Origin: Nitrospiraceae bacterium
GTDB lineage: Bacteria > Nitrospirota > Nitrospiria > Nitrospirales > Nitrospiraceae
Assembly: GCA_039920585.1 (NCBI GenBank)
Contig: JBDSDL010000084.1
Span: forward strand, 184 to 64,183
Length of the DNA stretch: 64,000 nt
Reading direction: 5' to 3'
The notes under the pieces were generated by a model. It searched no databases. It was given only the letters and a program-made list of their open reading frames with translations, and had not been told where the DNA came from. Both the position numbers and the translations under genes were made by a program. Shown piece by piece: positions 8,423-60,463 of the stretch; positions within the stretch are counted from its first letter, which is position 1; each line of letters starts with the position of its first letter.

Positions 8423-8433
8423 AAGAAAGTGAC

Positions 8434-9045: not shown

Positions 9046-9076
9046 ATGTCAGGGGTAAGGCATGAGGGGTGAACTG

Positions 9077-9835
9077 GTGAAAATACAAAACAAGGGAACC
9101 GTCGCCTTACGCCTGACACTTCACACGCTCACGCTGACGGTTCTCGCACTGGTGGTTGCCGGCTGCAGCGGGTCGAAAGTGACCACGAAATCGTCCGCGG
9201 AATTGCCGCGCTATCAGATTCGTACCATCGCATTGGTGTCGTTTACGACTCTCGCGACGCCACAGGTGAGGGACGTTGCCGATCAGATGTTCTCAGTACC
9301 GCCTGAGGTTCGCAGGTCCGATATGGCAATGGCGGTGCCGCCGAATATCGAACACACTCTCAGGCAAACGGTCACAGTGCCGTCTGGCGCTGGAGATATC
9401 GTCACGCAGCTCCTGTGGAACCGGTTAAAGACAAGGCAGGGGATAACCGTGCTCTCGCCTGGTGAAGCAGCGAGAGCATTGGGGGCTCCGGCAACGCCGC
9501 AACCTCCCACCAATCAGTCACCGGCGGTGGCAATCGCCAAACAGCTCAAAGCGGATGCTTCGCTGATCGGCCAAGTGTTGGTGTATCAGGAGCGAGTCGG
9601 TGGTCGCTTCGGCGCCAGCCCACCGGCCACGGTGGGGTTTGAAGCCAAGGTGGTCGCGGCTGACGGGCAAGTCCTGTGGGAAGGAAATTACTATGAGAAA
9701 CAGAGGCCGATGAACGAAGACGTGATGGGATTTATCCAGCGCAGGGGTATGTTCGTCACGGCGGAGGAGCTGGCGGCGTATGGAGTTGAGCATATGCTTC
9801 AAGAGTTTCCGTTTGGAACAGTCGGGGAACACTGA
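9077..9835 (+). CDS. Putative lipoprotein of unknown function
   Basis: Signal peptide plus lipobox (LALVVAGC|SGS). GTG at 9077 lies 7 nt after GAGGGG; ATG at 9062 is the alternative start. No family recognised. Confidence 0.65.
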   Translation: MKIQNKGTVALRLTLHTLTLTVLALVVAGCSGSKVTTKSSAELPRYQIRTIALVSFTTLATPQVRDVADQMFSVPPEVRRSDMAMAVPPNIEHTLRQTVTVPSGAGDIVTQLLWNRLKTRQGITVLSPGEAARALGAPATPQPPTNQSPAVAIAKQLKADASLIGQVLVYQERVGGRFGASPPATVGFEAKVVAADGQVLWEGNYYEKQRPMNEDVMGFIQRRGMFVTAEELAAYGVEHMLQEFPFGTVGEH

Positions 9836-9853
9836 GAGGAAGCGGTTCTTTGT

Positions 9854-10579
9854 ATGCTCGTTATTCCTGCTATTGATTTAAAAGATGGCCGTTGTGTTCG
9901 ATTGCGCCAGGGCGACATGGCGGCTGAAACGGTCTATTCCGACGACGTGCCGGCTGTCGCGAGGCAATGGCAGCAAGGCGGTGCCTCGCTGATTCATGTG
10001 GTGGATCTGAACGGAGCCGTAGATGGAGCGCCGCGCAATTTTCCTCAGATTGAAGCGATCGTTCGCACTGTGAGCCTCAATATACAGGTCGGGGGAGGGA
10101 TCCGATCGATTGAGACGGTGCGGCGCTATCTCGGGACGGGCGTGACCAGAGTGGTGCTCGGCACTTCGGCCTTGGCCGATCGGTTGTTCTTGGAGAAGGC
10201 CTGTCGGGAATTTCCAAGACGGATTCTGTTGGGACTGGATGCGCGGGATGGGAAGGTGGCGGTCAAGGGTTGGACGGCGGTATCGGAGACGCAGGCGACT
10301 GAATTGCTGAAGGAGCTGGCAGGCTACGCCTTGGGCGCTGTGATCTATACGGACATAGCCCGCGATGGTATGTTGGGCGGACCGAATCTTGTGGCGTTGC
10401 AGGAGGTGGTTGAGTTGTCGTCCTTCCCCGTGATCGCCTCTGGAGGTATTTCGCGCATCGAAGACTTGCGGGCCGTGCAGGCGCTCGGCCCACGGGTTGA
10501 AGGCGCGATTGTGGGGAAAGCGCTGTACGACGGGAAACTTGATTATCGAACCGCTCTTGCGGCTCTCCGCGAGGCGTAA
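9854..10579 (+). CDS. hisA: ProFAR isomerase
   Basis: 241 aa, MLVIPAIDLKDGRCVRL... and HisA-like throughout. Confidence 0.95.
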   Translation: MLVIPAIDLKDGRCVRLRQGDMAAETVYSDDVPAVARQWQQGGASLIHVVDLNGAVDGAPRNFPQIEAIVRTVSLNIQVGGGIRSIETVRRYLGTGVTRVVLGTSALADRLFLEKACREFPRRILLGLDARDGKVAVKGWTAVSETQATELLKELAGYALGAVIYTDIARDGMLGGPNLVALQEVVELSSFPVIASGGISRIEDLRAVQALGPRVEGAIVGKALYDGKLDYRTALAALREA

Positions 10580-45927: not shown

Positions 45928-46090
45928 GCCGACTCTCCTCCATACGTCAAATTCCTTCCTACTATTCTAGCCCTGTCAACACAATCGATTGCCGAGCACC
46001 CCCCCGAGGCTCGCGTTCCGTTGTCCGCGAGATTGAGAACCAGTGTCGCCAGTGATGAAAATCAAACTCAAGGAGACTCGACCAACCAAG

Positions 46091-46846: not shown

Positions 46847-48613
46847 TTATTGATAGTCTTCATTCAGCGACTTGAGGAACGCCACAAGCGCCGCGACGTC
46901 GCCGGTTGCGAGTGCGATACCTTGGAGTTGCACCGCTCCGTTACGTAACGTTCCCGCACGGGCTAGATTCGAGGCATCGATATAAAAATTAATAATGTCA
47001 GTCAATGTGGCGAATTGACCGTTGTGCATATAGGGAGCGGAATGGCTTAAGTCGCGAAGGCCCGGTGTTTTGAATCTGGCGATAGCCCGATCCAGGAGGT
47101 CTGCATCGGATAGCGTGCACGGCACTTGGTCATCGCACAAGATAGTCTTAATTTTTTCTTGCGGGTTCGGCATATCTGGGTTAGCGAAGATGTTCCAGAG
47201 CCCCAAATCGGTCAGCGTAGTTCCTGCCGTGGGGATGGATCGGAACCGTTCGCTTGCGCCGGGATGTAACTCCGTTGCGGGGAGGTCATTGGCCGTTCTT
47301 ACGGGCGTAAGGATTAGGTGAGGGATGGGGAGTGCCGCGAATGACCCAGCTGCATGGCCTGCCCCTACCGAGGGATCGTCATACTCGCGTTGTGTGACGC
47401 CTGTATTGTGAAGCTTGAAGTCCGTAAAATTTGGTGCGGCATGGCAGGCGAGGCAGTTGCCGATTGCTCCTGCGGCCACTTCTGGCAGTGAGGCGGTTGG
47501 CGGAGTAGCCGGTTCCGCAAGAAATATCTTGAGTCCTGCTAATTCCGTCGCTCCAAATACGAATGGTTGAGTATGGAATTGGAATAGGCCGTTTCCTCGA
47601 TTTGGATTAGACGTCACGAACTGAGGACTAACTAATCCGTTCACGAGCGTCAGGAGGCGGCGGCTGTAATCGAGCGGAGTTTCGCCACTGGTCGGCTGAT
47701 GTGGGAGGCCGTTGCGACTCAAGAATACGTTGAACGGAGAGCGGATAAGATTGCCGGCATCGTCAGATTGCGAGAAGAGTAAGCCGTTGACGTAGGCCGC
47801 GACTACTTTCACAACCGCGTTGAAGATCTCCTGGTCGCTGGCTGATGCGATGAACACACGAAATTCAGGAGGCAGACGAAGTTCATCCGGAATGGATGGG
47901 TCGGCTCCGGTGAACAGGACGCGATAGGATAGTCCGTCGAATTGCTGAGCGATGTCTCCGCTGCCGTCGTCGTTCCGCATGACTTGTGCAATGTGATGGA
48001 TCGCTTCCGCTTTTTGCCCCGGTAACCAGCCGAAGTTCCGACCGGTGAATGTCCCGACGATGAGATCCTCCAACGTCGAAAATTCCCCATCAAAGTGAAA
48101 TAACGTTCCACCGGGTCTAGCGAGCGAGGCATTCACCAGCGGAGGAGAGTTGCGCGGCGCCATGAGTTTGCCATCCGGACGAGATGGAATTGGACTGCGG
48201 GAGGCGAAGTCTGTGTAGGTACGCATACCTCCACCAGAAATTCCCACAAATTCGTCAACGAAGTGGCAGGATCGACAATTCATGGACATTCCAGCAAATG
48301 GACTAGCGACGCCGGACGGATTACCACCGGGGAGTAACACCTTGGCTACGACAGGGTCGCCGACAGGGAGAGGATCATTCACGTTCCCGCCTGGCGGGAG
48401 ATGTGCCTTAAAGAATTGAGCAAAGCGGGTTTCGACGAACAGCCGTTCGCCGACGTCGGCTTGGGCTCCGGGTGTTCCTGTGGCTGCAACTGAAGGCGGC
48501 GGAGCACTGCTGTTTCCGGATCCACATCCGACGAGGAGAAGAGCGATGAAGATCCAAGATGATCTTCCGACGGCATGTGCGAGGACCGTGTGGCGACGGC
48601 AAAAAGGAAACAT
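46847..48613 (-). CDS. Di-haem cytochrome c peroxidase (CCP/MauG)-like lipoprotein, enlarged
   Basis: ATG 48613 lies 7 nt after GGGAGG. Lipobox LLVGC. Two CxxCH motifs (NCRSCH, NCLACH). CCP-type motif SAPYMHNGQFATL. Confidence 0.8.
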   Translation of the reverse strand: MFPFCRRHTVLAHAVGRSSWIFIALLLVGCGSGNSSAPPPSVAATGTPGAQADVGERLFVETRFAQFFKAHLPPGGNVNDPLPVGDPVVAKVLLPGGNPSGVASPFAGMSMNCRSCHFVDEFVGISGGGMRTYTDFASRSPIPSRPDGKLMAPRNSPPLVNASLARPGGTLFHFDGEFSTLEDLIVGTFTGRNFGWLPGQKAEAIHHIAQVMRNDDGSGDIAQQFDGLSYRVLFTGADPSIPDELRLPPEFRVFIASASDQEIFNAVVKVVAAYVNGLLFSQSDDAGNLIRSPFNVFLSRNGLPHQPTSGETPLDYSRRLLTLVNGLVSPQFVTSNPNRGNGLFQFHTQPFVFGATELAGLKIFLAEPATPPTASLPEVAAGAIGNCLACHAAPNFTDFKLHNTGVTQREYDDPSVGAGHAAGSFAALPIPHLILTPVRTANDLPATELHPGASERFRSIPTAGTTLTDLGLWNIFANPDMPNPQEKIKTILCDDQVPCTLSDADLLDRAIARFKTPGLRDLSHSAPYMHNGQFATLTDIINFYIDASNLARAGTLRNGAVQLQGIALATGDVAALVAFLKSLNEDYQ

Positions 48614-48632
48614 GATGAAACCTCCCGCACTT

Positions 48633-49349
48633 CTATTGTGAATCAAAGCAGTTTCTCGTCGTTGGTTCGACAAGATCTGAGCCTGGAATAGATTTCTGTA
48701 ATAGACAGAATGCTTGGACTAACTCCGGGTCAAATTGGGTGCCGGCTGCTACTCGGATAATTCTGAGGGCGATCCTGTTCCGCGTGACTCGGTTTGAAAC
48801 TTCGGGGATGCGGATGGCGTCGAAGGCGTCGGCAATCGAGAGTATTCTGGATCCAAGGGGGATGAATCTCCCCCTGATGCCGTACGGATAACCAGATCCG
48901 TCCCATCGTTCGTGATGGTGGGCAATGAGGACGGTAGCCTCTCGGAGGAAAAAGAACGGTTCGAGTAGCGACGCGCCAAGCCGAGGGTGGTTCTGCACGG
49001 TGACATAGGACTCTGGATTGAGATGGTTCGCTCCAATGGTGAGTTCGTGAGGAAGCATCAAGAGCCCGATGTCGTGGAGGAAGACCGCGAGTTTCAGATC
49101 GTGCAACTTGTCTGTTGTCAGGCCGATCGCTTGCCCGATCAACAATGAGATCGCAGCTGTGCGACGGCCATGACCGGCCTGCCAGGGGAGGGCGTGATCC
49201 AACTCCCTGCTCGCTTGCTGCACAAGGATACTTTGAACATCGCGGCGTGACGCCAAAGGGAGTCGGAGACGGTCGATCTTCTGGAGCAATGTCTGGATCG
49301 TGATGATCCCAGGATGAATGTGTTCAGAGATGTATTGTTGCATCATCAT
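48633..49349 (-). CDS. HD-GYP domain protein (putative c-di-GMP phosphodiesterase), stand-alone
   Basis: HDIGLLMLP and HHERWDGSGYPYG motifs. Start is ambiguous among ATGs at 49343-49349 and 49382. Confidence 0.85.
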   Translation of the reverse strand: MMMQQYISEHIHPGIITIQTLLQKIDRLRLPLASRRDVQSILVQQASRELDHALPWQAGHGRRTAAISLLIGQAIGLTTDKLHDLKLAVFLHDIGLLMLPHELTIGANHLNPESYVTVQNHPRLGASLLEPFFFLREATVLIAHHHERWDGSGYPYGIRGRFIPLGSRILSIADAFDAIRIPEVSNRVTRNRIALRIIRVAAGTQFDPELVQAFCLLQKSIPGSDLVEPTTRNCFDSQ

Positions 49350-49451
49350 TTCTCCAGGAAAACGAAGAGCCCAAAACCACATTGTGTGATCTTGGGCTCT
49401 GGGTGAAAAACCTCTGGCCGCAGTCTGTGTCGAGCGTGAGTGTGCGCTAGT

Positions 49452-49970
49452 TCATTCTTCTTTCCCGTGCTTTCCTGCCATCAGCGGCTGGTTCAAGACC
49501 CACATCTCGTACAGAGGGATGGTCATCATGATGAGAAACCCCACCGTCATAAGGGTATCGCCCGTCAGCATGGTCAAGACGAATATGGGGGAGACGTAGC
49601 TGATGAGCCAGGGAGAGACCAAGTCCAAAGTTACCCCACCGAATGAGATCCAGGTTGTGATGACTTTCAACCTGTTGCCGGCGCTGGTGAGATAGAGCAC
49701 ATGCACGAGAATCATAAACACGACCGGCATCGTAAAGAGGTGGAAGTGGGTTATTTCTGCCAGTTCCCTGAACGACATCGGTTCGCCGAATGTAGCATCC
49801 GACCCCCGGTAGTGACTGGCGATTCCTTGTGGAGACAGCCCGGTCATGCTGTGTGCCCAGAAGAATGAAAAGGTAAAGCCGGCCAGCATCAAGAGGAGAA
49901 AGAAGGTGTAAACCAGGCGGATGTGCCGGTCGGTGTCGCGGAGACGGAAGCGAGTGTTGAAATTGCGCAT
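49452..49970 (-). CDS. His-rich 4-TM membrane protein of unknown function
   Basis: 172 aa with four predicted TM helices. Histidines lie at or in the helices (WAHS, THFHLF, LVHVLY). No family recognised with confidence. Confidence 0.6.
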   Translation of the reverse strand: MRNFNTRFRLRDTDRHIRLVYTFFLLLMLAGFTFSFFWAHSMTGLSPQGIASHYRGSDATFGEPMSFRELAEITHFHLFTMPVVFMILVHVLYLTSAGNRLKVITTWISFGGVTLDLVSPWLISYVSPIFVLTMLTGDTLMTVGFLIMMTIPLYEMWVLNQPLMAGKHGKEE

Positions 49971-49994
49971 GGATGAGAATGTTGGCTACCCCTG

Positions 49995-50678
49995 TCAGTT
50001 TCCGAAGATGGAGCCGAAGATCCCCTGTTCAGATTTCTTTGCGGCCACCGTATCGCTGCCGAGCCCTGCCGGTTTCAAATAGAATTCATCGACGAGGACG
50101 AGCACGCGTTTGACGCCGGCGCTGATCGAACGAACCGACATGGTGGCGCCGCTGATGTTGATGATGTCTTTATTAATGCGAATGGGGTCGGACACCGTTT
50201 TGCCTTCATACTGCGCGTTGAATCGTTTTCTTCCGACATCGCTGCCCCTGGCCTCTCGAAACACCAACAACTCCACATCTGTACAGGCGCCTCTAGTATC
50301 GACCCCAACCATGTAGGTCATGTGTTTGTGTTTCCCAATGGTGTTGTGAACCATGGCGTAGCCGTCGATCTTGTCGCCTGTTTCACCGATATGCACGTCA
50401 AACGATTCTTCCGGGAATTTCCAGCCGATGCGCTGTTCGATCGCATCCTTCTTTTCCTGGCTCAGTCGAATAACGGCTTTGCGGATTCGCTCCGACTTGG
50501 GAAGCATGATTTTGACCGCATCTTCCTCGGTCATGAAGACTTCTGCGTGGTTCGTCTCTTCTTCTGTGAGATAGCGTTTGAGGTCGTTATCCCAGATGCG
50601 CTCGGCGGCGAACGCGTCAGTGGCCAATGCAAGCCCGATGAGTATCAGAAGAGAAGTGAATCTTACGTAAGCGAACAC
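49995..50678 (-). CDS. Exported FMN-binding (FMN_bind) domain protein
   Basis: Signal peptide (..ALATDAFA|AE). NISGATMSVRS matches the (S/T)GAT flavinylation motif of NqrC/RnfG/NosR-type ApbE substrates. GTG start. Confidence 0.8.
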   Translation of the reverse strand: MFAYVRFTSLLILIGLALATDAFAAERIWDNDLKRYLTEEETNHAEVFMTEEDAVKIMLPKSERIRKAVIRLSQEKKDAIEQRIGWKFPEESFDVHIGETGDKIDGYAMVHNTIGKHKHMTYMVGVDTRGACTDVELLVFREARGSDVGRKRFNAQYEGKTVSDPIRINKDIINISGATMSVRSISAGVKRVLVLVDEFYLKPAGLGSDTVAAKKSEQGIFGSIFGN

Positions 50679-51118
50679 CCGTGCTCCTTCAATTTGCTGT
50701 CGAGGCGGCTTTGGACATCGTAGATCACCTCATCTGACGGGTCTGTCGAGGCCCAGCCAAAGAGGCGCGAGCCGCCCCTAAAAACCCACCGTTGCCGCTC
50801 TTCGACAAAACTAATCTTGGTCACATCGTCGAGTCGTTTCACTGTGAGGGTAATACGGGACCGGTCTTTGCTCTCCGACACATCACGTTGAAGAATGCCA
50901 AAGGCTCGTCCTGATATCGGGATTTCCAGCCAGCTGGTGACAATCAGGCCTGCATCTTTATCTTTCGTGTCGATCGCGCGATCTTTCACTGCCTGAAGGG
51001 CAGCCTCCCAGGCATGGTCGTAGCTGCACACGGCAAATCGTTCCTGCATGCCGCCCATGAAGGCGCAGGCTGACAAAATCCCGGCCATTATAAGGAGGCT
51101 GAACTGAGGAATATACAT
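50663..51118 (-). CDS. Small lipoprotein of unknown function
   Basis: 151 aa with lipobox ILSAC. 16-nt overlap with the downstream FMN_bind gene. Confidence 0.6.
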   Translation of the reverse strand: MYIPQFSLLIMAGILSACAFMGGMQERFAVCSYDHAWEAALQAVKDRAIDTKDKDAGLIVTSWLEIPISGRAFGILQRDVSESKDRSRITLTVKRLDDVTKISFVEERQRWVFRGGSRLFGWASTDPSDEVIYDVQSRLDSKLKEHGCSLT

Positions 51119-51180
51119 GAGAAAATGACCAATTCTTGTCTGGTGCTCCCCACCAGGATGGTGAGGAGCACCAACGACGT

Positions 51181-52635
51181 CTAGAAGTATGTTGCCATTT
51201 GAACCAAGAAACCATTTCCATTCAGTGGGGAATTGGCATTAGTTGAGAAATCGCCTACGTTCACCAGACCTTTAGCATTTTGTTGAGTGTTAAACTGCCA
51301 GTCGAATTTGAACACTGTGTCTTCGATCGGCCTGAAGTTCAATCCGAGTGTCAGCCGCTCCAACTCTCTTCGATTCCCTGCAGTATTCGACGTGATCTGA
51401 GTGCGGTTGTCGGTGTCGGTGTCCACCTGCTCCCAGCGCACAACCGCGGTGAAGGTCGAGGCATGCGTGAAGTGGCTTGGCGCCCATTTTTTCAGGAACT
51501 CCGGCATGAAATGATAGTTGCCCTGAATGTAGTAGCCTTGCATGCCGGCCGGACCGATCCCACTTCCCGTGACGCCGGTCGCATCGTTGTTGCTGATTCG
51601 CGACCAGGCCGACTCTCCAATGATTTCAAATGGGCCTCGCTGCAGAGTCCAGTCGAGCGCGAATATGCTGATGCGTCCGGTCCCGACTGATCCCGCTGAC
51701 GGTTTGTATGTGCCATGAAAACCAGACCCCGCGACTTCGATCCCCAGCATGGGACTGAGGGCGACGCGGCCCACAACGGCCTTGTTATCGTCACGGTCCC
51801 TGGACACGCTGCCTCGCGCGCTTCGCACTCCCAAGTCGGTGATGCCGCCTGCAGTTTGGCTCATGCCGTTGACCGCGTAGACTTCATAGTCCAGCTTGGA
51901 CTGGGAGGAAGGATAGAGGCTGCCGTAGATGCCGGCCCCTGCTTCAAACCAGGTGCTGGGGATGATAATCCTGGATACCATCGGTCGATCGACCAAGTCA
52001 TTCAACGGCGAGTCGTGCAGTAAGTTGAACTTGCCGACCGGCATCAGGAGGAGACCAGCACGTGTGTTGATAGCCTCTTTGACCAGGTAGTCGATTTGTG
52101 CGAACTCAATGGTCATGGAGCCATCACCTTGTGCAGCATTGGTCCCGCCCCGCTCGAACTCAAGTTCCGCTGCGAATTTGATGCGGTCGGTGATGTCCGC
52201 ATAGATAAAGGGCACCAATCGTTGTTGACCGAATGAGTGACGGCTTGGGTTGTCCAGGTTTTGGCGAGAGAGATTGTTATACATCACGTCGACATAACCG
52301 CCGACGATGGCCTTCGGCGCGCTCAAGAAGGGCTTAGCGTAGATCAGTTTTCCTGACCCTGTCGACCCGAAACCTAGGGGGATCGCTTCCTCTCCTTTTC
52401 GCTCGGCTCTGATGTCAACTATGGGACCAATTGGAGTGGGTGTTTGTGTGGCGGCCGGAGGAGCGTCTTCTTTGCGCTCCATAGCCCCTTCGCGCTTTTC
52501 ATGTTCTTGCATTTTCTTGTTCACTGCCTCGTCGACTAGTTTCTGAATGTCCTCCGGGGTCAAGTTGTCAGCCCAAACCGAAGTAAACGGCATAGCTGCA
52601 ATCACGAGAGCCCCGAGGATTGACCGGATCTTCAT
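51181..52635 (-). CDS. Outer-membrane beta-barrel porin-like protein
   Basis: ATG 52635 after GGAGGA. Signal peptide (..FTSVWA|DN), short coiled-coil, alternating beta-strand pattern, and a C-terminal ...LVQMATYF with terminal Phe. Confidence 0.75.
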   Translation of the reverse strand: MKIRSILGALVIAAMPFTSVWADNLTPEDIQKLVDEAVNKKMQEHEKREGAMERKEDAPPAATQTPTPIGPIVDIRAERKGEEAIPLGFGSTGSGKLIYAKPFLSAPKAIVGGYVDVMYNNLSRQNLDNPSRHSFGQQRLVPFIYADITDRIKFAAELEFERGGTNAAQGDGSMTIEFAQIDYLVKEAINTRAGLLLMPVGKFNLLHDSPLNDLVDRPMVSRIIIPSTWFEAGAGIYGSLYPSSQSKLDYEVYAVNGMSQTAGGITDLGVRSARGSVSRDRDDNKAVVGRVALSPMLGIEVAGSGFHGTYKPSAGSVGTGRISIFALDWTLQRGPFEIIGESAWSRISNNDATGVTGSGIGPAGMQGYYIQGNYHFMPEFLKKWAPSHFTHASTFTAVVRWEQVDTDTDNRTQITSNTAGNRRELERLTLGLNFRPIEDTVFKFDWQFNTQQNAKGLVNVGDFSTNANSPLNGNGFLVQMATYF

Positions 52636-52771
52636 CGGTATCCTCCGTGGTGAGTGAGATGGTTGAGGTCTGACTCGGGACTCAATGGTCTCTGGCCTTC
52701 TTGAAGAAATGAATAGTCCGCACAAAGGAACTGCGTGTTGATGTTTCGAGTGCCTCCTTTCGTTTAGGGAA

Positions 52772-52951
52772 TCATGATGCAACTGAGCCCCATCCTTCGA
52801 TTGAAGAAAACGGGATGACAACAATGCGTTTACAGCGCTTGCACTTGAGCTCTAGCCCTTGTCCTCGCACTTTAGCGATCAGTTGACCGCACTCGCAGCG
52901 GGTCTCGCCGCAGTCGGCGGAGTGACTACGAGAAGATGTGGCGTTAACCAT
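52772..52951 (-). CDS. 59-aa Com-like zinc-ribbon protein (below the ORF-track size cutoff)
   Basis: Hand translation: MVNATSSRSHSADCGETRCECGQLIAKVRGQGLELKCKRCKRIVVIPFSSIEGWGSVAS. GAGGAA lies 9 nt upstream of the ATG. The segment CxC..LIAKV...LELKCKRCKRIVVI resembles phage Mu Com (C..C.KLLFKA...IEIRCPRCKR.I). Confidence 0.55.
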   Translation of the reverse strand: MVNATSSRSHSADCGETRCECGQLIAKVRGQGLELKCKRCKRIVVIPFSSIEGWGSVAS

Positions 52952-52981
52952 CGCGAGAGGTTCCTCTTTTCAAATGAAATT

Positions 52982-53022
52982 GAGAACGATTATTAATATC
53001 TCAATCGACGTTTGAAAGTCAA
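52982..53022 (-). promoter_or_regulatory. Fur box overlapping the -10 of a sigma70-like promoter for the minus-strand operon
   Basis: Minus strand reads TTGACT (53017-53022), 17 nt spacer, ATATTA (52994-52999). GATATTAATAATCGTTCTC (52982-53000) matches GATAATGATAATCATTATC at 15 of 19 positions by hand and is flanked by ATTGAGA/TCTCAAT arms. Confidence 0.7.
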
Positions 53023-53124
53023 GGCTTATCATGGCGCTCAACTCATCGAGAAAGGGATGTATTCAGCGTAGTCCTGACCTATAATTCATCGTCTCTTTGA
53101 TATAGGGGAGCGAGAGAAGACTGC

Positions 53125-54159
53125 ATGCATTCCAACCTGCTCAATCATTTATTTCGTATCCAGACATGCTTCCTGACGCTGTTGTGTACCGTCTTCGCTG
53201 GCTGTGTGGGGGTACCCCCTGCCCAGGAGCGGGCCGTCGTCACCAGAGTCCAGATGCAGATGGGCACGCTAGTCAAGATTACGGTGGTGGCGAGGAGTGA
53301 GTCTTTCGCGCAAGCTGCGGCCACCGCAGGATTTGCTGAGATCCGTCGTCTGGAAGAGCTTATGAGCACCTGGATTCCGACGAGCGAACTTTCTCGCGTG
53401 AATACCTCGGCGGGCGTAATGCCGGTCTCTGTGAGTCCTGAAACGATGACGGTTGTCCAAGGTTCGATTCAGGTTGCGGAGATGACTTATGGTGGATTCA
53501 ATATTGCCATTGGCCCAGCGGTGGATGCCTGGAATGTGATTGAAGGTAGACGAATACCGACAGAATCTGAGCTGGCAGCTCTCCGTCCCTTGGTCGATCT
53601 GAAGTCGGTTCATGTTGATGTGGGGGAGCGAACAATCTTTCTTGGGAAAGCAGGGATGCGGATTGATGTAGGGGGAATCGGCAAAGGTTACGCTGCGGAT
53701 CAAGCGGTGATGGCGATGAAGAAAGCCGGAGCGTCAGCTGGAGTCGTGGCTCTCTCCGGGGATATCAAAACATTCGGACAGTTGCCGGGAGGGAGGAAAT
53801 TTCCTGTCGGTATTCAGCATCCGCGCAAAGAGGGAGAGGTGCTTGTCTTCATCGACTTGGAAGATGAGGCGATCTCAACGGCCGGTGACTACGAACGATT
53901 TTTCGAGCGCGATGGCGTTCGGTATCATCATATTCTTGACCCGAAGACGCTTCAACCTGCGCGCGGTTGCCAGGCTGTCACGGTGGTTGCCCGTGAAGGC
54001 ATCTGGGCAGATGGGTTGGACACAGGGATATTTGTGATGGGCGCTGAATCGGGAATGCAACTTGTCGAAGCATTGCCGGATGTGGAGGCCATCATCGTAG
54101 ACCATGAAGGTTCGGTCCACGTATCCTCGGGGTTACGGAATCGGATCCGAAAACCGTGA
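53125..54159 (+). CDS. apbE: FAD:protein FMN transferase (ApbE), lipoprotein
   Basis: 344 aa, lipobox VFAGC. ApbE-like motifs (MGT.V.I, GGIGKGYAAD, ISTAGDYERFF..DG.RYHHILDP). Confidence 0.9.
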   Translation: MHSNLLNHLFRIQTCFLTLLCTVFAGCVGVPPAQERAVVTRVQMQMGTLVKITVVARSESFAQAAATAGFAEIRRLEELMSTWIPTSELSRVNTSAGVMPVSVSPETMTVVQGSIQVAEMTYGGFNIAIGPAVDAWNVIEGRRIPTESELAALRPLVDLKSVHVDVGERTIFLGKAGMRIDVGGIGKGYAADQAVMAMKKAGASAGVVALSGDIKTFGQLPGGRKFPVGIQHPRKEGEVLVFIDLEDEAISTAGDYERFFERDGVRYHHILDPKTLQPARGCQAVTVVAREGIWADGLDTGIFVMGAESGMQLVEALPDVEAIIVDHEGSVHVSSGLRNRIRKP

Positions 54160-54168
54160 AGCAGAAGG

Positions 54169-55092
54169 TTATCGGTCCAACCGATAACTCATGGGAATCT
54201 TAATCGTCATGCGTGGCTGCCCTAACGGACGAGGCAAGTGGAAGGGGGCGGCCTGCCGCAGGGTTTCAATCGCAGCTTTGTCGAGGCCGGGGTGTCCCGA
54301 ACTCTGAAAAACCTCCACTTCACCGATGCTCCCATCCTCGTCGATCATGGCTCTCACTACGACTTTCCCCTCGGCTCGATCCACCCGAGCCGAGGCGGGG
54401 TAGCGTTTGAGTTCTTCCACGCGACGTAAAATCGCTTCAGAGAGCCACCCGTAGTCGCGTTTCGTCGGCGCGTTCGATGGTGCCGGGGAAATAGCGGCCA
54501 TCTGCATTAGTGCCGGAGGCTGATCAGATTGTGCGGTGTGTCCGGGGATCGCAGACTGCGCGCTCAAGGGCGCCACCTGGGCATCAGATTCCGCAGAGAC
54601 TACTGTCGGCGCGTTGGCTGGTTTCACAGTAGTTGTAGGCTCGGCGGCCATCGGCGTCACAGTCTCAGGCCTGATGAATTCGTCCGGTTGTGCTGTGGGA
54701 GCTGTTGGCTGAGGTGGAGGAGGTTCAGTGACCACCGGAGTATCGGTCCGCCCAGAAATCGATGGAGTCGTCTGTTGCGCAATCGGCTGGGGCGCTGGAA
54801 GCATCTCTGCCGACGCAGGCTGCTGTGGGGAGGGATAGGGAGCCGATGTCGTTGACGGTATGGATCGAGACGGTGTTTGGTTTGGGGATGATGCCGTTAG
54901 TTGAGCTGGCTGACTCGGCGAGACCATGGCGACATTCCACTTGAACGCTTCGTCCTGCGGCGCGAGTTGAATTTGCTTCACAGTGAGGATCGCTGTGAGG
55001 GCCACGGTACTGTGCAAGAGGATGGAGACGAGCCAGCCTTGGACGTGCGCTTCTTTCTGGCCTCCGAGGCGATGCGGCCCAGCAGCGATCAT
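54169..55092 (-). CDS. tonB: Energy transducer TonB
   Basis: N-terminal TM (SILLHS), a long Pro-rich spacer, and a C-terminal TonB domain (YPASARVDRAEGKVVV...). ATGA overlap with exbD. Confidence 0.88.
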   Translation of the reverse strand: MIAAGPHRLGGQKEAHVQGWLVSILLHSTVALTAILTVKQIQLAPQDEAFKWNVAMVSPSQPAQLTASSPNQTPSRSIPSTTSAPYPSPQQPASAEMLPAPQPIAQQTTPSISGRTDTPVVTEPPPPQPTAPTAQPDEFIRPETVTPMAAEPTTTVKPANAPTVVSAESDAQVAPLSAQSAIPGHTAQSDQPPALMQMAAISPAPSNAPTKRDYGWLSEAILRRVEELKRYPASARVDRAEGKVVVRAMIDEDGSIGEVEVFQSSGHPGLDKAAIETLRQAAPFHLPRPLGQPRMTIKIPMSYRLDR

Positions 55093-55463
55093 AGTCGAAT
55101 GACCTCCAGGCTGACTTGTTGAAATCCCAACCCGCGCACTTCATCGACCACCGAAACGAATCGTTCCAGCAAGGTGACTTTATCCGCCCGCACGATCACC
55201 GACGATGCTCGAGGTTCCGCAGCCAGTGCTCCTTGGAGCCCTCCTTCGGGAACGGTTCGGTTGTTGAGAAAGAGCGCGCCGTCGGCAGTCAGGGTGATGA
55301 CGATGGGCGCTTCTTTACGATTGCCGACTTCCTTCGCTTGTGCCAAATTGACCGGAATCTGTCCGCTGCTGATAAAGGTGGCGGTGGTCAGCACGATGAC
55401 CAACAGGACCAGCATGACGTCCACGAGGGGGATGACGTTGATTTGGTCAATGTCCCGCTGCAT
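55089..55463 (-). CDS. exbD: Biopolymer transport protein ExbD/TolR
   Basis: 124 aa, INVIPLVDVMLVLLVIVL N-terminal TM typical of ExbD. Confidence 0.9.
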   Translation of the reverse strand: MQRDIDQINVIPLVDVMLVLLVIVLTTATFISSGQIPVNLAQAKEVGNRKEAPIVITLTADGALFLNNRTVPEGGLQGALAAEPRASSVIVRADKVTLLERFVSVVDEVRGLGFQQVSLEVIRL

Positions 55464-55878
55464 GCTGCTCCTTGTGTCGGGCCAGGAGTTCCGCCACCTT
55501 CCGCCGGAGTACGTTGTTCATGACGACGCAGGGAATGGCAACCATCAGTCCGACCGCCGTGGCTTTCAGCGCAAGGCTGAGCCCGATCATGATGGCATTG
55601 ACGGCCATGGTACCAGAGGTTCCCATCGTATGGAAGGTGAGCATGATACCGAGCACAGTGCCCAGCAACCCGATATACGGAGCATTTGCGGCCACCGTGC
55701 CGATGATGACCAGGTGTTTGGTCAAAGCCATCTCCAATCCCAGACTGTTGGGATATTGAGCAAGATCGACACGGCGGTAAAAGAGCCACCGCTCCACCGC
55801 GATGGCGACCGTCCAGACGCTGAGCACTATGAGGAGCCCGATGACTCCATAATCGACTAGGTCTTGCAGCGCGTTCAT
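55447..55878 (-). CDS. exbB: MotA/TolQ/ExbB proton channel protein
   Basis: 143 aa, three TM segments. APYIGLLGTVLGIM motif. Confidence 0.9.
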   Translation of the reverse strand: MNALQDLVDYGVIGLLIVLSVWTVAIAVERWLFYRRVDLAQYPNSLGLEMALTKHLVIIGTVAANAPYIGLLGTVLGIMLTFHTMGTSGTMAVNAIMIGLSLALKATAVGLMVAIPCVVMNNVLRRKVAELLARHKEQHAAGH

Positions 55879-56007: not shown

Positions 56008-57189
56008 TTACCCGGTGGATTCCTCTCGCCGAAAGAGCACCGTATGGGTAGCCAAGACACGGAGTTCCACCGTTGTGCCTGCCTGATAGACGCTCGTGGA
56101 GCCCTGACTACTATGAACGATCTGACCGGAGGGGAGGCTGACCGTGTACAGATTCTCCGATCCATGGAATTGGCGAGAAAGGACGCGCGAGCGGGCACCC
56201 TCCATGGGAACGAGATGAATGTCGTCCGGTCGAATCATGACGACCACGGCGGTGCCGTCTTTGCAGTCGATCGTATCGGGGAACTCTCCCAGTTCGGTGT
56301 GGACCATGCCGTGGGACACGGTTCCAGGAATAAAGTCTGCCTGACCAACAAAATCGGCCACGAAGGGCGTGGCCGGCATGTGGTACATCATTTCCGGCGT
56401 ATCGAATTGTTCCAAGCGGCCCTGGTTGAGCACAGCAATTCGGTCGGCCATGGCAAAGGCTTCGTCATGATCGTGCGTGACAAGCACGGTCGTGGTCTTC
56501 GTCCGGCGTAACAGGTCGTGCAACTCTTGGCGCATGCGTCCGGCCATGTCAGGGTCCAAATTGCTGAACGGCTCATCAAGCAGCAGCACGACGGGATGTT
56601 GAACGAGGGCGCGAGCCAGCGCGACCCGCTGTTGTTGGCCACCCGATAATTCGTGCGGGTACCGCCGTTCGAATCCCTCCAGTCCTGTGAGGCGCAGCAT
56701 CTCCTGGACACGCTCGGAGCGAACGCTTCGAGCGAGGTGGCGGAGGCCGAAGGCAATGTTATCCTGTACGCGCAGGTGGGGAAATAGCGCATATTCTTGA
56801 AAGACCATCCCGACGCGCCTGTTCTCTGTAGGGGTCATCATGTCCGGTGACGACACGAGTTGGCCGGATAAGAAAATCTGGCCGGAGCGAACCGGCTCAA
56901 ATCCGGCGATCGCCCGCAGAATCGTCGTTTTTCCGCATCCAGAGGGGCCGAGCAGGCAGAGAATTTCCCCCTCCCTTGCCGCGAACGAGATTTCCTGGAC
57001 CGCGGGGCGTCCGGTTTCATAGGCGCAGGAAACATAGCGTAGCTCCAGGACCGAGGAGGCTGGTGTAAAGAGGTTACCCTGGAATGTGTTCTCTCCAGAT
57101 GGGCGTGGCGCAGTGGAGTGGTCTGAGATCACAGAGTCACGATCCTTCCTCTTGCAGACTGAGGTCGAGCAAGGTTGAGTGAAGACCAA
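56008..57189 (-). CDS. fbpC: Iron(III)-type ABC transporter ATP-binding protein (FbpC/AfuC-like)
   Basis: Walker A GPSGCGKTT, signature LSGGQQQRVALARAL, Walker B LLLDEP, and a C-terminal TOBE-like region. The N-terminal roughly 50 aa (TTG start) is doubtful. Confidence 0.88.
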   Translation of the reverse strand: MVFTQPCSTSVCKRKDRDSVISDHSTAPRPSGENTFQGNLFTPASSVLELRYVSCAYETGRPAVQEISFAAREGEILCLLGPSGCGKTTILRAIAGFEPVRSGQIFLSGQLVSSPDMMTPTENRRVGMVFQEYALFPHLRVQDNIAFGLRHLARSVRSERVQEMLRLTGLEGFERRYPHELSGGQQQRVALARALVQHPVVLLLDEPFSNLDPDMAGRMRQELHDLLRRTKTTTVLVTHDHDEAFAMADRIAVLNQGRLEQFDTPEMMYHMPATPFVADFVGQADFIPGTVSHGMVHTELGEFPDTIDCKDGTAVVVMIRPDDIHLVPMEGARSRVLSRQFHGSENLYTVSLPSGQIVHSSQGSTSVYQAGTTVELRVLATHTVLFRREESTG

Positions 57190-57233
57190 ATTTTCTTCAT
57201 CGGAGCCTCAACCGTAGTCTCCAATGATACGGG

Positions 57234-58817
57234 CTACGCTGCGCGCCAATCTTTCGAGACCAACAAAGCCAGTGCCGGGAGACTGAGTAAGACAATGAGG
57301 AGCGCGGAGGGGGCGGCGAGTTGATAATATTCCTCGCTCGCTTCCATCCAGACACGAATGGCCAGAGTGTCGAATCCTACCGGCCGCAACAAGAGCGTCG
57401 CAGGGAGTTCCTTCATCGTCTGTAGAAATATTAAAACCCAAGCTACGACAAATCCGTTCCGAATGAGTGGCAATGTGACCTGTCGCCATGTGTCACGCAT
57501 TCCAAGGCCCAGTGTGCGCGCAACCTCTTCCAGATTCGGCGACATATGCTGGAGCGCCGGCTCTAGAGACTGGAGCCCGGCTGGGAGAAAATGGATCACG
57601 TAGGCCACGATGAGGATCAGTACTGAGCCGTAGAATACAGGGGCCAGCTTGGTAAAGAGGACAAGGACGGCCAGCGCTGCCACCGGTCCTGGGAGCACAT
57701 AGCCGGCATAGGCGGCTTGAAGGCAACCCAGATTCAGCACAGTCGGGCGGCGGCTGGCCAGGTAGGCAAGCGGCAAGCCGATCAATACGCCTCCAGTGGC
57801 AGCACAGGCAGCCAGGATGCCGCTGTTCCAGACGAACCCGAAGAATCGGCTGTCGAGTGTCGCCTGAGCCTCTGGCGACAGGCTCCAGTGAATCAACAGC
57901 AAGGTTGGGAGCGCGAAGGCTGTACCAATGATCAGCCCGAGATAGCCGGTGATGGCGGCGGTGCCGAGCCAGCCATATTGACGCCGTTGAGGAGCTCGGT
58001 AGCGGCCGGTGGTCTGATAAAACCGGCTCCGTTGTCGGAACCACCGTTCAGTAATGAGAAAAACCAGCGCGAGCACGACCAGTAAGAGGCTCAAGATACT
58101 TGCCGCAGTATTGTCGGATCGTCCGGTCATCTGTTGGAATACGGCGTAGGTGAGTGTTTGGTAGCGAAGCAATGATACCGCGCCGAAATCCGACACGACA
58201 TATAAGATAACGAGCGCAACCCCGGCGGCAATCGAGGGGCGCATCAGCGGCAGCGTCACGCGCCAGAGAGTCGAGAGACGGGAAACGCCACTGGCCCGTG
58301 CCACCTCCTCGAACGACACGTTCATGCTGAGAAGCGCACTCCGGCTGAGGAGATAGACGAAGGGAAAGGTATCCAATGCCATCACGAGCGTCGCGCCCCA
58401 ATAACTATGGGGAGAAAAGATTCTGGCCTGAGGACCAGCCACGAGTTGCCAAAGATGTTCGACAGGGCCGCCAAATCCCAAGAGGTAGGAATACACATAG
58501 GCCAGCACGTAGGTCGGCATTGCCAATGGAAGGACTAAGGCGCCTTCCCACAGTCTGCGACCGGGAAACTCTACACGTGTCACCAGCCAGGCAGTCGAGA
58601 CGCCCAGGACTAGCGTGATGACCGACACGCTGCCGGCCAGCGAGACGGTGTTGAACAGCAGCTCGGGAATACGAGTCGCCCACAAACGGCTCCAGACGGC
58701 CGGATCGGCTGAGAGGGCTTGTGCGGTGACATAGCCGAGTGGGAGCAGGATAATTCCGGCAGTCGCCAAGGCAACGAGTTGCAGTGGCGAAGCAAGTTGG
58801 TGGCGACTCGTGTTCAC
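57234..58817 (-). CDS. fbpB: Iron(III) ABC transporter permease, fused double domain (FbpB/AfuB-like)
   Basis: 527 aa, about 12 TM segments, and two EAA-loop regions (EEVARASGVSRL..., EEVARTLGLGMR...). Confidence 0.88.
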   Translation of the reverse strand: MNTSRHQLASPLQLVALATAGIILLPLGYVTAQALSADPAVWSRLWATRIPELLFNTVSLAGSVSVITLVLGVSTAWLVTRVEFPGRRLWEGALVLPLAMPTYVLAYVYSYLLGFGGPVEHLWQLVAGPQARIFSPHSYWGATLVMALDTFPFVYLLSRSALLSMNVSFEEVARASGVSRLSTLWRVTLPLMRPSIAAGVALVILYVVSDFGAVSLLRYQTLTYAVFQQMTGRSDNTAASILSLLLVVLALVFLITERWFRQRSRFYQTTGRYRAPQRRQYGWLGTAAITGYLGLIIGTAFALPTLLLIHWSLSPEAQATLDSRFFGFVWNSGILAACAATGGVLIGLPLAYLASRRPTVLNLGCLQAAYAGYVLPGPVAALAVLVLFTKLAPVFYGSVLILIVAYVIHFLPAGLQSLEPALQHMSPNLEEVARTLGLGMRDTWRQVTLPLIRNGFVVAWVLIFLQTMKELPATLLLRPVGFDTLAIRVWMEASEEYYQLAAPSALLIVLLSLPALALLVSKDWRAA

Positions 58818-58833
58818 GATGGGTCCCTTCGAG

Positions 58834-59874
58834 TTACCGGAGACCCACTTGTTCGATCAGGGTGAGCGTCGGTTCGCGCAGTTCGGCGAGTTTGGAGAGA
58901 GGGACCAGCGCCGCACGGAAACTCTTTCGGTCTACCAGCGCCGGGTCTGCCTTCACGTCTTGGTGGAGAGGATACTCTTTGTCGAGATCTGCAAATAGCT
59001 TTTGCCCCGCTTGAGCGACTAAGAACTCTACGAGCAGCTTGGCGCTGTCGAGGCGCTTGGTCGACTTGATGACGCCGACCCCGGCGACGTTCATGATCGC
59101 TCCCATGCCGCCCTCTTGCTGGTCAGGCATCACTACTGCGATCGGCGTCCCCGGCTGAGCGGAAAGATGACGGTACACGTAGTAGTGATTCACGATACCC
59201 AGGGCGACTTGTCCCTTGGCGACGGCATCCACGATCTGCGAGCTTTTCTGGTAGACCTGGTTGTCCGCATTGGTCTTGAGGCCTTGCAGGAACTGCTTGG
59301 TCTTCTCCTCGCCGTAAGTGGCGCGGATGACCGACACGCCCGCTTGCAGATACTCGCTGCCGGAATTCGGAATTGCAATCTTGTCTTTCCACTTTGGATC
59401 AGCAAGATCGAGAAGCGACTTGACTTGGTCCGGCTTCACCATTGTGGTGTTATACACCACAATCCAGAATCGACCGGAGAGTCCCACCCAGGCATTATCC
59501 GACGCACGAAACTGCGACGGAATGGCTCGTTCGACTTCCCGCATATTCAACGGGTGGAGGAGCCCAGCTGTCCGGGCCAGCTCCAAACTGCCGGCATCAT
59601 TGGTGATCAGGAGATCTGCCGACGTGCGATCACCCTCAGCCTTCAGCCGATTGACCAATTCCGTCGTGCCTGACGACAACAGCTCTATTTGAATGCCGGT
59701 ATTAGCCGTGAAGGCATCGAGTACCGGCTTGATGAGCCGCTCCGAGCGACCGGAGTAAATTGTGAGTGAATCGGCGGCAGAGGCGGAGGGCGCGAAGATC
59801 CCTGCCGCAAAGAGTAGAAGAAAACTTGCGAGGATCGCTCGGGACAACGTCGGAAGAGAATATACGAATGACAT
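58834..59874 (-). CDS. fbpA: Periplasmic iron(III)-binding protein (FbpA/AfuA-like)
   Basis: ATG 59874 after GAGGGG. Signal peptide ..APSASA|AD, then LTIYSGRSERLIKPVLDAFTANTGIQIE typical of FbpA. Confidence 0.85.
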   Translation of the reverse strand: MSFVYSLPTLSRAILASFLLLFAAGIFAPSASAADSLTIYSGRSERLIKPVLDAFTANTGIQIELLSSGTTELVNRLKAEGDRTSADLLITNDAGSLELARTAGLLHPLNMREVERAIPSQFRASDNAWVGLSGRFWIVVYNTTMVKPDQVKSLLDLADPKWKDKIAIPNSGSEYLQAGVSVIRATYGEEKTKQFLQGLKTNADNQVYQKSSQIVDAVAKGQVALGIVNHYYVYRHLSAQPGTPIAVVMPDQQEGGMGAIMNVAGVGVIKSTKRLDSAKLLVEFLVAQAGQKLFADLDKEYPLHQDVKADPALVDRKSFRAALVPLSKLAELREPTLTLIEQVGLR

Positions 59875-59917
59875 GGGAGTGCCCCTCATGGAATTGAAAT
59901 TGATAAACTGTCTCAAA

Positions 59918-59946
59918 ATGATACTAAAAAAAAGTTGGTACGTCAA
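59918..59946 (-). promoter_or_regulatory. Sigma70-like promoter candidate for fbpABC, with the -35 overlapping the fur stop codon
   Basis: Minus strand reads TTGACG (59941-59946), 17 nt spacer, TATCAT (59918-59923). Downstream TTTGAGACAGTTTATCAAT contains TGATAA and AATGATA half-sites (weak Fur-like operator, 11 of 19 by hand). Confidence 0.4.
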
Positions 59947-60353
59947 TGACGGCAGCGAGAACAGAGGCCGTAGAGCTCAAGTCGGTGGGTTTTGATCGCA
60001 AATCCGTTCCGGGCTGCCACTTCTTCCTGGAGCCGCTCAATTTCTTCGTTTTCGAATTCCACGATCTTCTCGCAGCCGGTGCAGATGAGATGATCGTGGT
60101 GGCCCTTGTGCGAGACGTTGTCGTACTTTGTCTGAGAACCGAAATGCCGGGCTTGTGCAAGGCCGGCATCGCAGAACAGATTGAGTGTCCGATAGATAGT
60201 CGCGAGCCCCAGATGAGGATCGGACTTCGCCAGCTGGTGATACATGGCCTCCGCGGTAATGTGTTCCTGCCGGAGGAAGGCGTTCAGAATCAATTCACGT
60301 TGGCGGGTGAGCTTGAGCTGATGCTTGCCCAGGTGTTCCTTCAAGGCCTGCAT
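59943..60353 (-). CDS. fur: Ferric uptake regulator family protein
   Basis: LKLTRQRELILNAF..., ATIYRTLNLF winged helix, HHDHLICTGCEKIVEF and a C-terminal CSRC. ATG 60353 gives 136 aa; the ORF-track TTG at 60428 gives 161 aa. Confidence 0.88.
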   Translation of the reverse strand: MQALKEHLGKHQLKLTRQRELILNAFLRQEHITAEAMYHQLAKSDPHLGLATIYRTLNLFCDAGLAQARHFGSQTKYDNVSHKGHHDHLICTGCEKIVEFENEEIERLQEEVAARNGFAIKTHRLELYGLCSRCRH

Positions 60354-60463
60354 TTCCTTTACATGTGTCTGTGCCAAGACGGGCCTCCGATGGGGCTCAT
60401 TAAAGACGAAACTTACCCGACTGGTCAAGGGGCTTCAAGCCGCACGTGCTTTAAAGGGAGGAA

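Follow-up and report, generated by a model that had tools for sequence, protein, structure and literature searches.

Flavinylated systems that depend on ApbE, act in iron reduction and are controlled by Fur form an established class (PMC8238504), and the same iron-reduction logic has already been proposed for PepSY-like, MsrQ-like and P19-associated flavinylation clusters (PMC8238504). The membrane partners of ApbE recorded in two surveys are NapH-, MsrQ- and PepSY-like proteins, DsbD, NQR/RNF-like proteins, DUF4405 and FezC (PMC8238504, PMC11334425). Here we describe an ApbE-associated module in a 64,000-nucleotide stretch of contig JBDSDL010000084.1 of a Nitrospiraceae bacterium (the whole stretch analysed, hereafter the window), where a compact minus-strand row of five genes and a divergent apbE gene occupy positions 49452-54159. 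The module works like the known iron-linked flavinylation clusters and differs from them in its membrane component, a four-transmembrane (4-TM) protein of the family Aq_1264_TM (PF27139), in its outer-membrane component, a porin, and in two extra genes in Nitrospira. We propose, with middling confidence, that it is a Fur-repressed, iron-starvation-induced quinol-to-flavoprotein output that reduces Fe(III) for uptake.

The PepSY-like FoxB/VciB clusters (PMC8238504; FoxB, 7ABW) resemble the module in being Gram-negative and in combining ApbE, an exported flavinylated protein and an inner-membrane partner; they are Fur-repressed in some species and have been proposed to reduce ferric chelates in the periplasm (PMC8238504). 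However, FoxB/VciB clusters have a PepSY cytochrome with three transmembrane (TM) helices and histidine pairs on different helices, a DUF2271 substrate and a TonB-dependent receptor, whereas the window encodes a 4-TM protein with its conserved histidines on one helix, an FMN_bind substrate and a porin modelled as OprO/OprP-type. FoxB/PepSY and the 4-TM protein show no sequence or fold similarity. The flavin-based extracellular electron transfer system of Listeria (PplA, FmnB, EetA/EetB, Ndh2, DmkA) likewise joins an ApbE-type transferase and small membrane proteins to an exported FMN_bind protein capable of Fe(III) reduction. However, it belongs to a Gram-positive organism, lacks a porin, is not known to be Fur-controlled and uses membrane proteins unrelated to those of the window; its NADH dehydrogenase and quinone biosynthesis genes are also absent from the window locus. 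RnfG and NqrC of Rnf and Na+-NQR share the FMN_bind fold and the threonine flavinylation motif with the window protein, but the locus contains no RnfD/NqrB, RnfA/E or other complex subunits. The FezC/DUF4405 cytochromes b are small membrane proteins encoded in the neighbourhood of apbE or iron genes (Huang et al. 2024, PMC11334425), and FezC was modelled as a homodimer binding haem through conserved histidines, a precedent for a dimeric haem site (PMC11334425). However, no member of the Aq_1264_TM alignment matches DUF4405 or a cytochrome family, and the inner histidine of the 4-TM protein is not universal.

Neither flavinylation survey (PMC8238504, PMC11334425) mentions a porin, Nitrospira or the Aq_1264_TM family, and the accessible part of the supplements of the 2021 survey (PMC8238504) holds no entries for PF07396, Nitrospira or Aquifex. 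In targeted searches of the literature, no characterisation, transcriptome or electrophoretic mobility shift assay of these genes came to light, and none of the searchable papers mentions PF27139 or aq_1264. An initial annotation of the window, made from its letters, had not recognised the five-gene arrangement as characterised; this stands for the membrane component and the porin link, neither of which appears in the surveys, but the porin itself had probably been predicted as Fur-regulated, under the name psp, in 2004.

A four-gene core conserved across lineages

Gene calls were made from the open reading frame listing and from Pfam and NCBIfam profile searches of the window proteins. All five genes of the row lie on the minus strand. 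The first encodes a cytoplasmic, Cys-rich zinc-ribbon peptide of 59 residues (52772-52951), and is followed by genes for a porin-like protein of 484 residues with a signal peptide and a C-terminal Phe (51181-52635; Porin_O_P, 26.3 bits) and for a lipoprotein of 151 residues with the lipobox LSAC (50663-51118). Next come an exported, RnfG/NqrC-like FMN_bind protein of 227 residues (49995-50678; PF04205, E = 1.7e-7) and the inner-membrane 4-TM protein of 172 residues (49452-49970). On the plus strand, 53125-54159 encodes ApbE, the flavin adenine dinucleotide (FAD):protein flavin mononucleotide (FMN) transferase (PF02424, E = 6.5e-81), whose N terminus (...LLCTVFAGC) ends in the lipobox FAGC. The small lipoprotein, the exported FMN_bind protein with its SGAT motif and the divergent lipoprotein ApbE named in the initial annotation are all present at the stated coordinates.

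The locus displays the hallmarks of an ApbE system, namely an exported lipoprotein ApbE and an exported FMN_bind substrate with an [S/T]GA[S/T] motif. In the FMN_bind protein the signal peptide ends at AFA, before AE, and the motif reads D171-I-I-N-I-S-G-A-T179-M-S (DI..ISGATxS). Residues D171, I172, G177, A178, T179 and S181 are invariant in the orthologues from nine distinct loci, and T179 (codon 50142-50144) is the predicted site of covalent FMN. The closest NCBIfam models are those of RnfG and NqrC, with scores far under the family cut-offs (24 bits against 205).

Orthologous loci were drawn from one genome per species and from metagenomes; contig scans with 4-TM alignments covered the best 80 matches, almost all of them Nitrospira, and non-Nitrospira contexts of about twelve distant family members came from exact look-ups of cluster representatives. 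Mapping with tblastn and hidden Markov models (HMMs) showed that the full arrangement is kept in about 160 Nitrospira-type loci, and the module is present in essentially every Nitrospira locus examined. The order in Nitrospira is importer, exbBD, tonB, apbE, zinc-ribbon peptide, porin, lipoprotein, FMN_bind, 4-TM, (HD-GYP, MbnH-like), bfr and topA.

Outside Nitrospira, Aq_1264_TM adjoins FMN_bind in every context with enough flanking DNA, and the 4-TM gene is still paired with FMN_bind in the minimal contexts L092 and L112. ApbE belongs to the same operon in most of these contexts and is fused to FMN_bind in two. A porin homologue of 500-550 residues, 26-30% identical to that of the window, occurs in eight; the homologues have in common GGYG, ELEFER, PVGRFN..HD, a C-terminal Phe and an N-terminal coiled coil. 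The zinc-ribbon peptide and the lipoprotein were not found in the roughly twelve non-Nitrospira contexts and occur only in Nitrospira-type loci. Conservation thus centres on porin, FMN_bind, ApbE and Aq_1264_TM, four functionally linked core proteins; the zinc-ribbon peptide and the lipoprotein are additions made in Nitrospira. Synteny of the gene set extends well past the genome of the window and the core reaches unrelated lineages, although the five-gene arrangement of the initial annotation holds for the Nitrospira-type loci and gives way elsewhere to the four genes that include apbE.

Two further contexts were recorded. In a low-GC metagenome contig (L091:7722-12761), the 4-TM gene and two FMN_bind genes stand beside genes for Fer4, NrfD, a molybdopterin oxidoreductase and a NarJ-like chaperone; in this lineage the pair may serve respiration, not iron uptake. 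The 'Deltaproteobacteria'-type modules of L088 and L089 have MoeA genes on both sides (L088:2569-4332 and 8629-9867; L089:2148-4064 and 7720-8958), one of which is fused to a PBP_like domain.

Fur-type operators in front of the module

The operon lies behind a Fur-type operator, GATATTAATAATCGTTCTCAATTTCAT (operon strand), at 52974-53000 on the minus strand. Within it, GAGAACGATTATTAATATC at 52982-53000 shares 15 of 19 positions with the Fur 19-mer of E. coli, and no other site in the window has five or fewer mismatches to that 19-mer; 0.05 sites per window would be expected by chance at four or fewer (20 shuffles), and no site in the window has three or fewer. The full operator consists of two overlapping boxes offset by 6 bp, an architecture reported for delta-proteobacterial Fur sites (PMC545781). 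It covers the -10 element of a sigma-70-like promoter, TTGACT-16 nt-GATATT (52995-53022, minus strand), the TTGAC -35 of which is kept at the same spacing across Nitrospira loci.

Phylogenetic footprinting singled out the same site. Across 61 distinct Nitrospira upstream regions GATATTAATAATCGTTCTCAATTTCAT does not change at all, whereas the sequence around it does; its distance to apbE ranges from 134 to more than 3000 bp among Nitrospira loci, and its core was found in 98 of 102 Nitrospira-type loci. The strong Fur box placed by the initial annotation at the head of a minus-strand operon is thereby confirmed. It should be noted that the 7-1-7 Fur consensus matches the window twice against 1.15 matches expected by chance, and that the full 19-mer at four mismatches and the footprinting make the case for Fur only in combination. 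Two more Fur-like matches, at 39146 and 41969, fall inside coding regions and were judged to be chance.

A second operator-type site, TTGAGACAGTTTATCAATTTC (59895-59916, minus strand), is identical to the operon operator at 16 of 21 positions and lies directly upstream of the solute-binding gene of the neighbouring importer and downstream of fur. The 9-mer TCAATTTCA, common to both operators, occurs only three times in the window.

The non-Nitrospira loci were scanned with the dFUR box WTGAAAATNATTTTCAW, the published delta-proteobacterial Fur consensus, which was derived from feoAB and fur promoters (PMC545781). In L083, L084, L088, L089 and L090 the best match of the whole locus lies directly upstream of the porin gene, and no such match appeared in 100 shuffles of any of these loci. 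The match has one mismatch in L088, and one in L089, where a second box overlaps it; L090 has two boxes with two mismatches each, and L084 has matches with three and four. In L083 the match has two to three mismatches, and a further box precedes a Cupredoxin_1 gene. The distant loci with dFUR boxes are GC-rich (59-72%). The initial annotation's idea of Fur-type control is therefore borne out at the level of predicted sites, by an operator conserved in Nitrospira and by independent boxes before the module in other lineages, and the origin of the dFUR consensus favours Fur proper over another paralogue. The small Cupredoxin_1 protein of L083 (5754-6161; weak Pfam match), which has its own Fur box, is encoded ahead of the module; we take it to resemble the N-terminal cupredoxin-like domain of EfeO.

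A Fur-regulated hypothetical porin named psp was predicted in 2004 in Geobacter metallireducens and Desulfuromonas (Rodionov et al. 2004, PMC545781). It was described as weakly similar to Porin_O_P, preceded by tandem Fur boxes and a possible iron carrier, with homologues 'only in Aquifex aeolicus and uncultured bacteria' (PMC545781). That study handled psp as a lone gene and drew no link to FMN_bind, ApbE or the 4-TM protein (PMC545781). This description fits the module's porin, and it was an Aquifex protein that gave the 4-TM family its name; the porin thus probably belongs to the psp family, a match by description from which we infer orthology. A profile search with porins, whose matches were mostly from Nitrospira, returned no Geobacter or Aquifex sequence among the matches listed.

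Membrane protein and proposed electron route

The 4-TM protein had no match in NCBIfam or in the scanned Pfam release, which did not contain the PF27139 model. Its assignment came from the precomputed annotation of its relatives: those 78-95% identical to it, all from Nitrospira, carry PF27139, and distant relatives do likewise. The family has no known function, and an exhaustive search of cluster representatives yielded 498 clusters of relatives at 50% identity. The protein is thereby placed in a family with no known role, and no unrelated function was turned up.

AlphaFold2 modelled four long helices as a confident bundle (mean predicted local distance difference test, pLDDT, 92.5), in agreement with the four transmembrane helices named in the initial annotation. 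However, the epithet His-rich was an overstatement. The protein has seven histidines. An alignment of 49 diverse family members shows just three invariant residues, G56, H75 and H77, while most but not all members also have H90. All three of H75, H77 and H90 lie on TM2. A search of the fold against the PDB found no structural neighbour (best E = 1.1), and the family profile matched no solved protein. None of the 49 members matched a cytochrome b, ferric-reductase, PepSY, DUF4405 or transporter Pfam family at E <= 1, and at the same threshold no member matched the families of the known ApbE partners (NapH-, MsrQ- or PepSY-like, DsbD, NQR/RNF-like, DUF4405, FezC). Two pairs of conserved histidines on at least two helices, the pattern of the dihaem cytochromes b FoxB/PepSY, MsrQ, CybB and NarI, were not found either.

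Positive charge is found at the N terminus and in the TM2-3 loop, and three independent natural fusions have the order 4TM-TM5-ApbE (P0176, P0239, P0246). Both termini of the 4-TM protein are thus predicted to be cytoplasmic, because the charge distribution points this way and ApbE in the fusions can reach the outside only by way of an additional TM helix. This topology puts the Y-Y-R-G loop and H75-x-H77 at the periplasmic face and sets H90 deeper in TM2 by thirteen residues. Since the conserved histidines are all on TM2, a bis-His haem b would be possible only in a homodimer; haem in such a homodimer, as modelled for FezC, is possible by analogy.

The proposed mechanism would run as follows. 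When iron is scarce, Fur would leave the operator over the -10 element and the operon would be transcribed. The lipoprotein ApbE would attach FMN covalently to Thr179 of the exported FMN_bind protein, and Aq_1264_TM would serve as the membrane partner of this flavoprotein, taking electrons from the quinol pool and delivering them to the flavin on the periplasmic side. The hand-over would take place at the invariant Y-Y-R-G/H-x-H face, and the route within the 4-TM protein would be either a haem b between the two TM2 helices of a homodimer or a direct quinol site. We assign quinol oxidation to the 4-TM protein because the flavoprotein needs a membrane donor and this protein is the only candidate that is always present. 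The reduced flavoprotein would then reduce Fe(III), or Fe(III) chelates, arriving through the dedicated OprO/OprP-type porin, which in Nitrospira would work paired with the lipoprotein, and the released iron would feed the neighbouring uptake and storage genes. A bolder version, which we put forward only tentatively, is a haem-free, iron-free ferric reductase pathway spanning the envelope, in which Aq_1264_TM would oxidise quinol periplasmically and pass both electrons directly to FMN, and the flavoprotein, located at or in the porin (with the lipoprotein in Nitrospira), would reduce extracellular or incoming Fe(III). If true, this would be a 'porin-flavoprotein' counterpart of porin-cytochrome conduits, one that costs no iron and is therefore switched by Fur when iron is lacking.

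Several points weigh against the proposal of Fur-repressed Fe(III) reduction. Transmembrane electron transfer by haem is not assured, the histidines being on one helix and H90 not universal, and the 4-TM-ApbE fusion would fit a role in flavin supply equally. Assignment of the importer to the Fe(III)-binding-protein type holds at family level only, and importers of that kind would not require reduced iron. A Fur-family box alone cannot tell Fur from its Zur, PerR or Mur paralogues. Furthermore, the non-Nitrospira modules lie among housekeeping genes with no iron transporter nearby, and the dFUR scan found no Fur box in L086, L091, L092 and L094, of which L091 stands beside a molybdopterin oxidoreductase. 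Because of the L091 context and these four loci, the function may be a general periplasmic electron output that was recruited for iron in some lineages.

Some of these facts also bear on other explanations. Flavodoxin replaces ferredoxin under iron starvation, and by the same iron-sparing principle the flavoprotein and the 4-TM protein could replace a haem or iron-sulphur periplasmic carrier for respiration, not iron uptake. Fur control would suit this role, as would the respiratory Mo-oxidoreductase beside the L091 module and the several lineages with no iron transporter nearby; a Fur-regulated flavodoxin is known in Desulfovibrio (PMC545781), and flavin/cytochrome redundancy is described in the flavinylation survey. 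We nevertheless consider it improbable, as it gives no reason for a dedicated porin to be the neighbour found most constantly and to come first after the Fur box, and no partner oxidoreductase is conserved. Secretion of flavins is common among iron-limited bacteria, and it is conceivable, if unlikely, that the 4-TM protein moves FAD or another flavin for ApbE, possibly releasing it through the porin as an extracellular Fe(III) reductant. Its three independent fusions to the FAD-consuming ApbE would agree with this, and according to PMC9973259, Listeria has dedicated membrane transporter subunits that traffic flavin for FmnB. However, FMN_bind is also fused to ApbE, so the fusions may merely reflect operon adjacency; moreover, the flavoprotein would be left without a membrane electron donor in the cluster, and the four-helix fold resembles no known transporter.

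A role of the 4-TM protein as a metal channel, importing Fe(II) or another metal by way of H-x-H, H90 and a conserved Glu while the donors of the flavoprotein are encoded elsewhere, seems to us quite unlikely. The invariant H-x-H at the periplasmic mouth, the further His and Glu along the bundle and Fur control would suit a transporter, and the survey notes flavinylated proteins that have no core membrane system in their cluster; but the protein is similar to no metal transporter family, H90 is not universal, no other electron donor is encoded in the cluster, and it is paired so strictly with FMN_bind, down to the minimal contexts L092 and L112, that the two proteins look like direct partners. 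It is also very improbable that the operator serves PerR, Zur or Mur and that the module is a periplasmic redox defence or acts on another metal. Fur-family boxes do resemble one another, and the regulator of the window scores under the curated Fur cut-off with PerR models not far behind. However, the consensus that the boxes match was built from feoAB and fur promoters, the second site precedes the importer next to fur, and the Nitrospira module has tonB-exbBD and bacterioferritin genes around it.

Nitrite oxidation in soils, waters and treatment plants is carried out mainly by Nitrospira, whose nitrite oxidoreductase and cytochromes demand much iron; to our knowledge, their iron acquisition is poorly known. 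Being near-universal in Nitrospira, preceded by a Fur-type operator and found in other phyla, the module is a strong candidate for an unstudied, widespread iron-acquisition route. If it does reduce Fe(III) as proposed, it would add a PF27139 class of membrane partner and the first porin-linked architecture to the ApbE systems, would give a function to a family of about 500 clusters, and would explain the Fur-regulated psp porin that has been open since 2004. Overall, the interpretation offered by the initial annotation is partly supported.

Porin, zinc-ribbon peptide and flanking genes

The porin exceeds the cut-off of PF07396 (26.3 bits against 20.9), with only the first half of the profile aligned. 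Its AlphaFold2 model, of moderate confidence (pLDDT 60), has 16 strands after a long N-terminal helix and a disordered linker, and a Foldseek search gave OprO and OprP as its top PDB neighbours (4rjx, 4rjw, 2o4v; E about 5e-12). The protein is thus modelled as an OprO/OprP-type 16-strand outer-membrane barrel, in line with the porin-like barrel of the initial annotation. By eye, its sequence contains no [S/T]GA[S/T] motif, and we rejected it as a flavinylation substrate of the DUF3570 kind. In one Nitrospira-type metagenome locus a second porin paralogue directly follows the 4-TM gene (L162:6666-8195).

The mature lipoprotein has 134 residues with invariant C1, C14 and C131 in the alignment, and no relative by sequence was found in Pfam or the PDB. 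Among 65 Nitrospira loci, porin and lipoprotein each fall into two sequence classes: relative to the window protein, porin identities are about 80-90% or about 45-50%, and lipoprotein identities about 70-90% or about 40%. Both proteins change class jointly (r = 0.92, against r = -0.21 with 4-TM divergence), which points to a physical pair swapped as a cassette, and the lipoprotein is probably the outer-membrane partner of the porin. The cassettes (50663-52635, minus strand, in the window; loci L003-L082) switch independently of the FMN_bind/4-TM backbone, which suggests recombinational exchange of a surface-exposed pair.

The core of the zinc-ribbon peptide, ETRCECGQLIAKVRGQGLELKCKRCKRIVVIPFSSIEGW, is nearly invariant in 102 distinct Nitrospira-type sequences, making the peptide the most conserved product of the operon. 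Its cysteines are C14, C19, C21, C37 and C40. No Pfam or NCBIfam family was assigned; DUF6510 and Zn_ribbon_4 remained below threshold even at E <= 10, and the phage Mu Com family gave no Pfam match. The initial annotation had called the peptide Com-like, and while a Cys-rich peptide is indeed encoded, the likeness to Com is one of resemblance, with no Pfam family at threshold. Like Com, the zinc-ribbon translational activator of mom, it is a short Cys-rich peptide, here encoded upstream of a gene whose ribosome-binding site is enclosed by a conserved RNA helix, and we take it to share the pattern R-C-x-C ... L-E-L-K-C-K-R-C-K with that protein. However, its first zinc knuckle is C-x-C or C-x4-C, and not the C-x2-C of Com.

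The helix in question was found in the leader of the porin gene with RNAalifold (52608-52683, minus strand), where GAGUCCCGAG (52674-52683) pairs with CUCGGGGCUC (52608-52617). It encloses the Shine-Dalgarno sequence and AUG of the porin gene, and CUCGGGGCUC corresponds to codons 7-10 of the porin signal peptide. Across 20 diverse loci its ten pairs are almost invariant, with one compensatory change; the flanks of the helix are conserved, and third codon positions in the CUCGGGGCUC stretch are unusually conserved. Folded alone, the leader was no better than shuffled sequence (z = +1.08), and the long-range helix emerged only from the comparative fold. The helix may be the target of the zinc-ribbon peptide, and by analogy the two may add Com/mom-like translational control outside phages, which we regard as a lead only.

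Downstream of the 4-TM gene, a terminator-like hairpin with a 16-pair stem and a T-rich tail (49366-49400, minus strand) likely marks the end of the operon, because the hairpin lies there and the next genes, for HD-GYP and MbnH-like proteins, are missing from some Nitrospira loci. On the other side, past apbE, lie tonB (54169-55092), exbD (55089-55463) and exbB (55447-55878), the three genes of an ABC importer (ATPase, permease and binding protein; 56008-59874) and a fur-family regulator (59943-60428), all on the minus strand and all with Pfam matches. The importer combines SBP_bac_6, a double permease with two BPD_transp_1 domains and an ATPase with ABC_tran and TOBE_2. The initial annotation had named it FbpABC among the surrounding TonB-ExbBD, Fur and Bfr genes; these genes are all present, but the FbpABC identity holds only at family level, with no equivalog-level match and with PhnS2 and PhnU2, far under their cut-offs, as the best NCBIfam models. 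The best NCBIfam model of the regulator is 'ferric iron uptake regulator', which it matches below the curated cut-off, and PerR models score not far behind.

In nearly all Nitrospira loci the exbB-exbD-tonB block (54169-55878) is adjacent to the module. Within the examined part of the window (about 37-64 kb) it has no TonB-dependent receptor gene beside it, and the porin of the module has a long N-terminal periplasmic extension. The opposite flank of the operon encodes an HD-GYP protein, a MauG/MbnH-like dihaem lipoprotein and a bacterioferritin. The first two (46847-49382, minus strand), an HD-GYP protein without a receiver domain and a lipoprotein of 608 residues whose C-terminal part is MauG/MbnH-like, lie downstream of the operon in most, not all, Nitrospira loci; an HD-domain gene, hdd, is a member of the predicted Fur regulon of Desulfovibrio (PMC545781). 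In addition, an intergenic dFUR-like site with three mismatches, ATGAAAATCAAACTCAA (46055-46071, plus strand), is located about 135 bp upstream of the bacterioferritin start. The probable true start of this gene is at about 46205; the listed open reading frame begins too early, as the bfr model aligns from residue 55.

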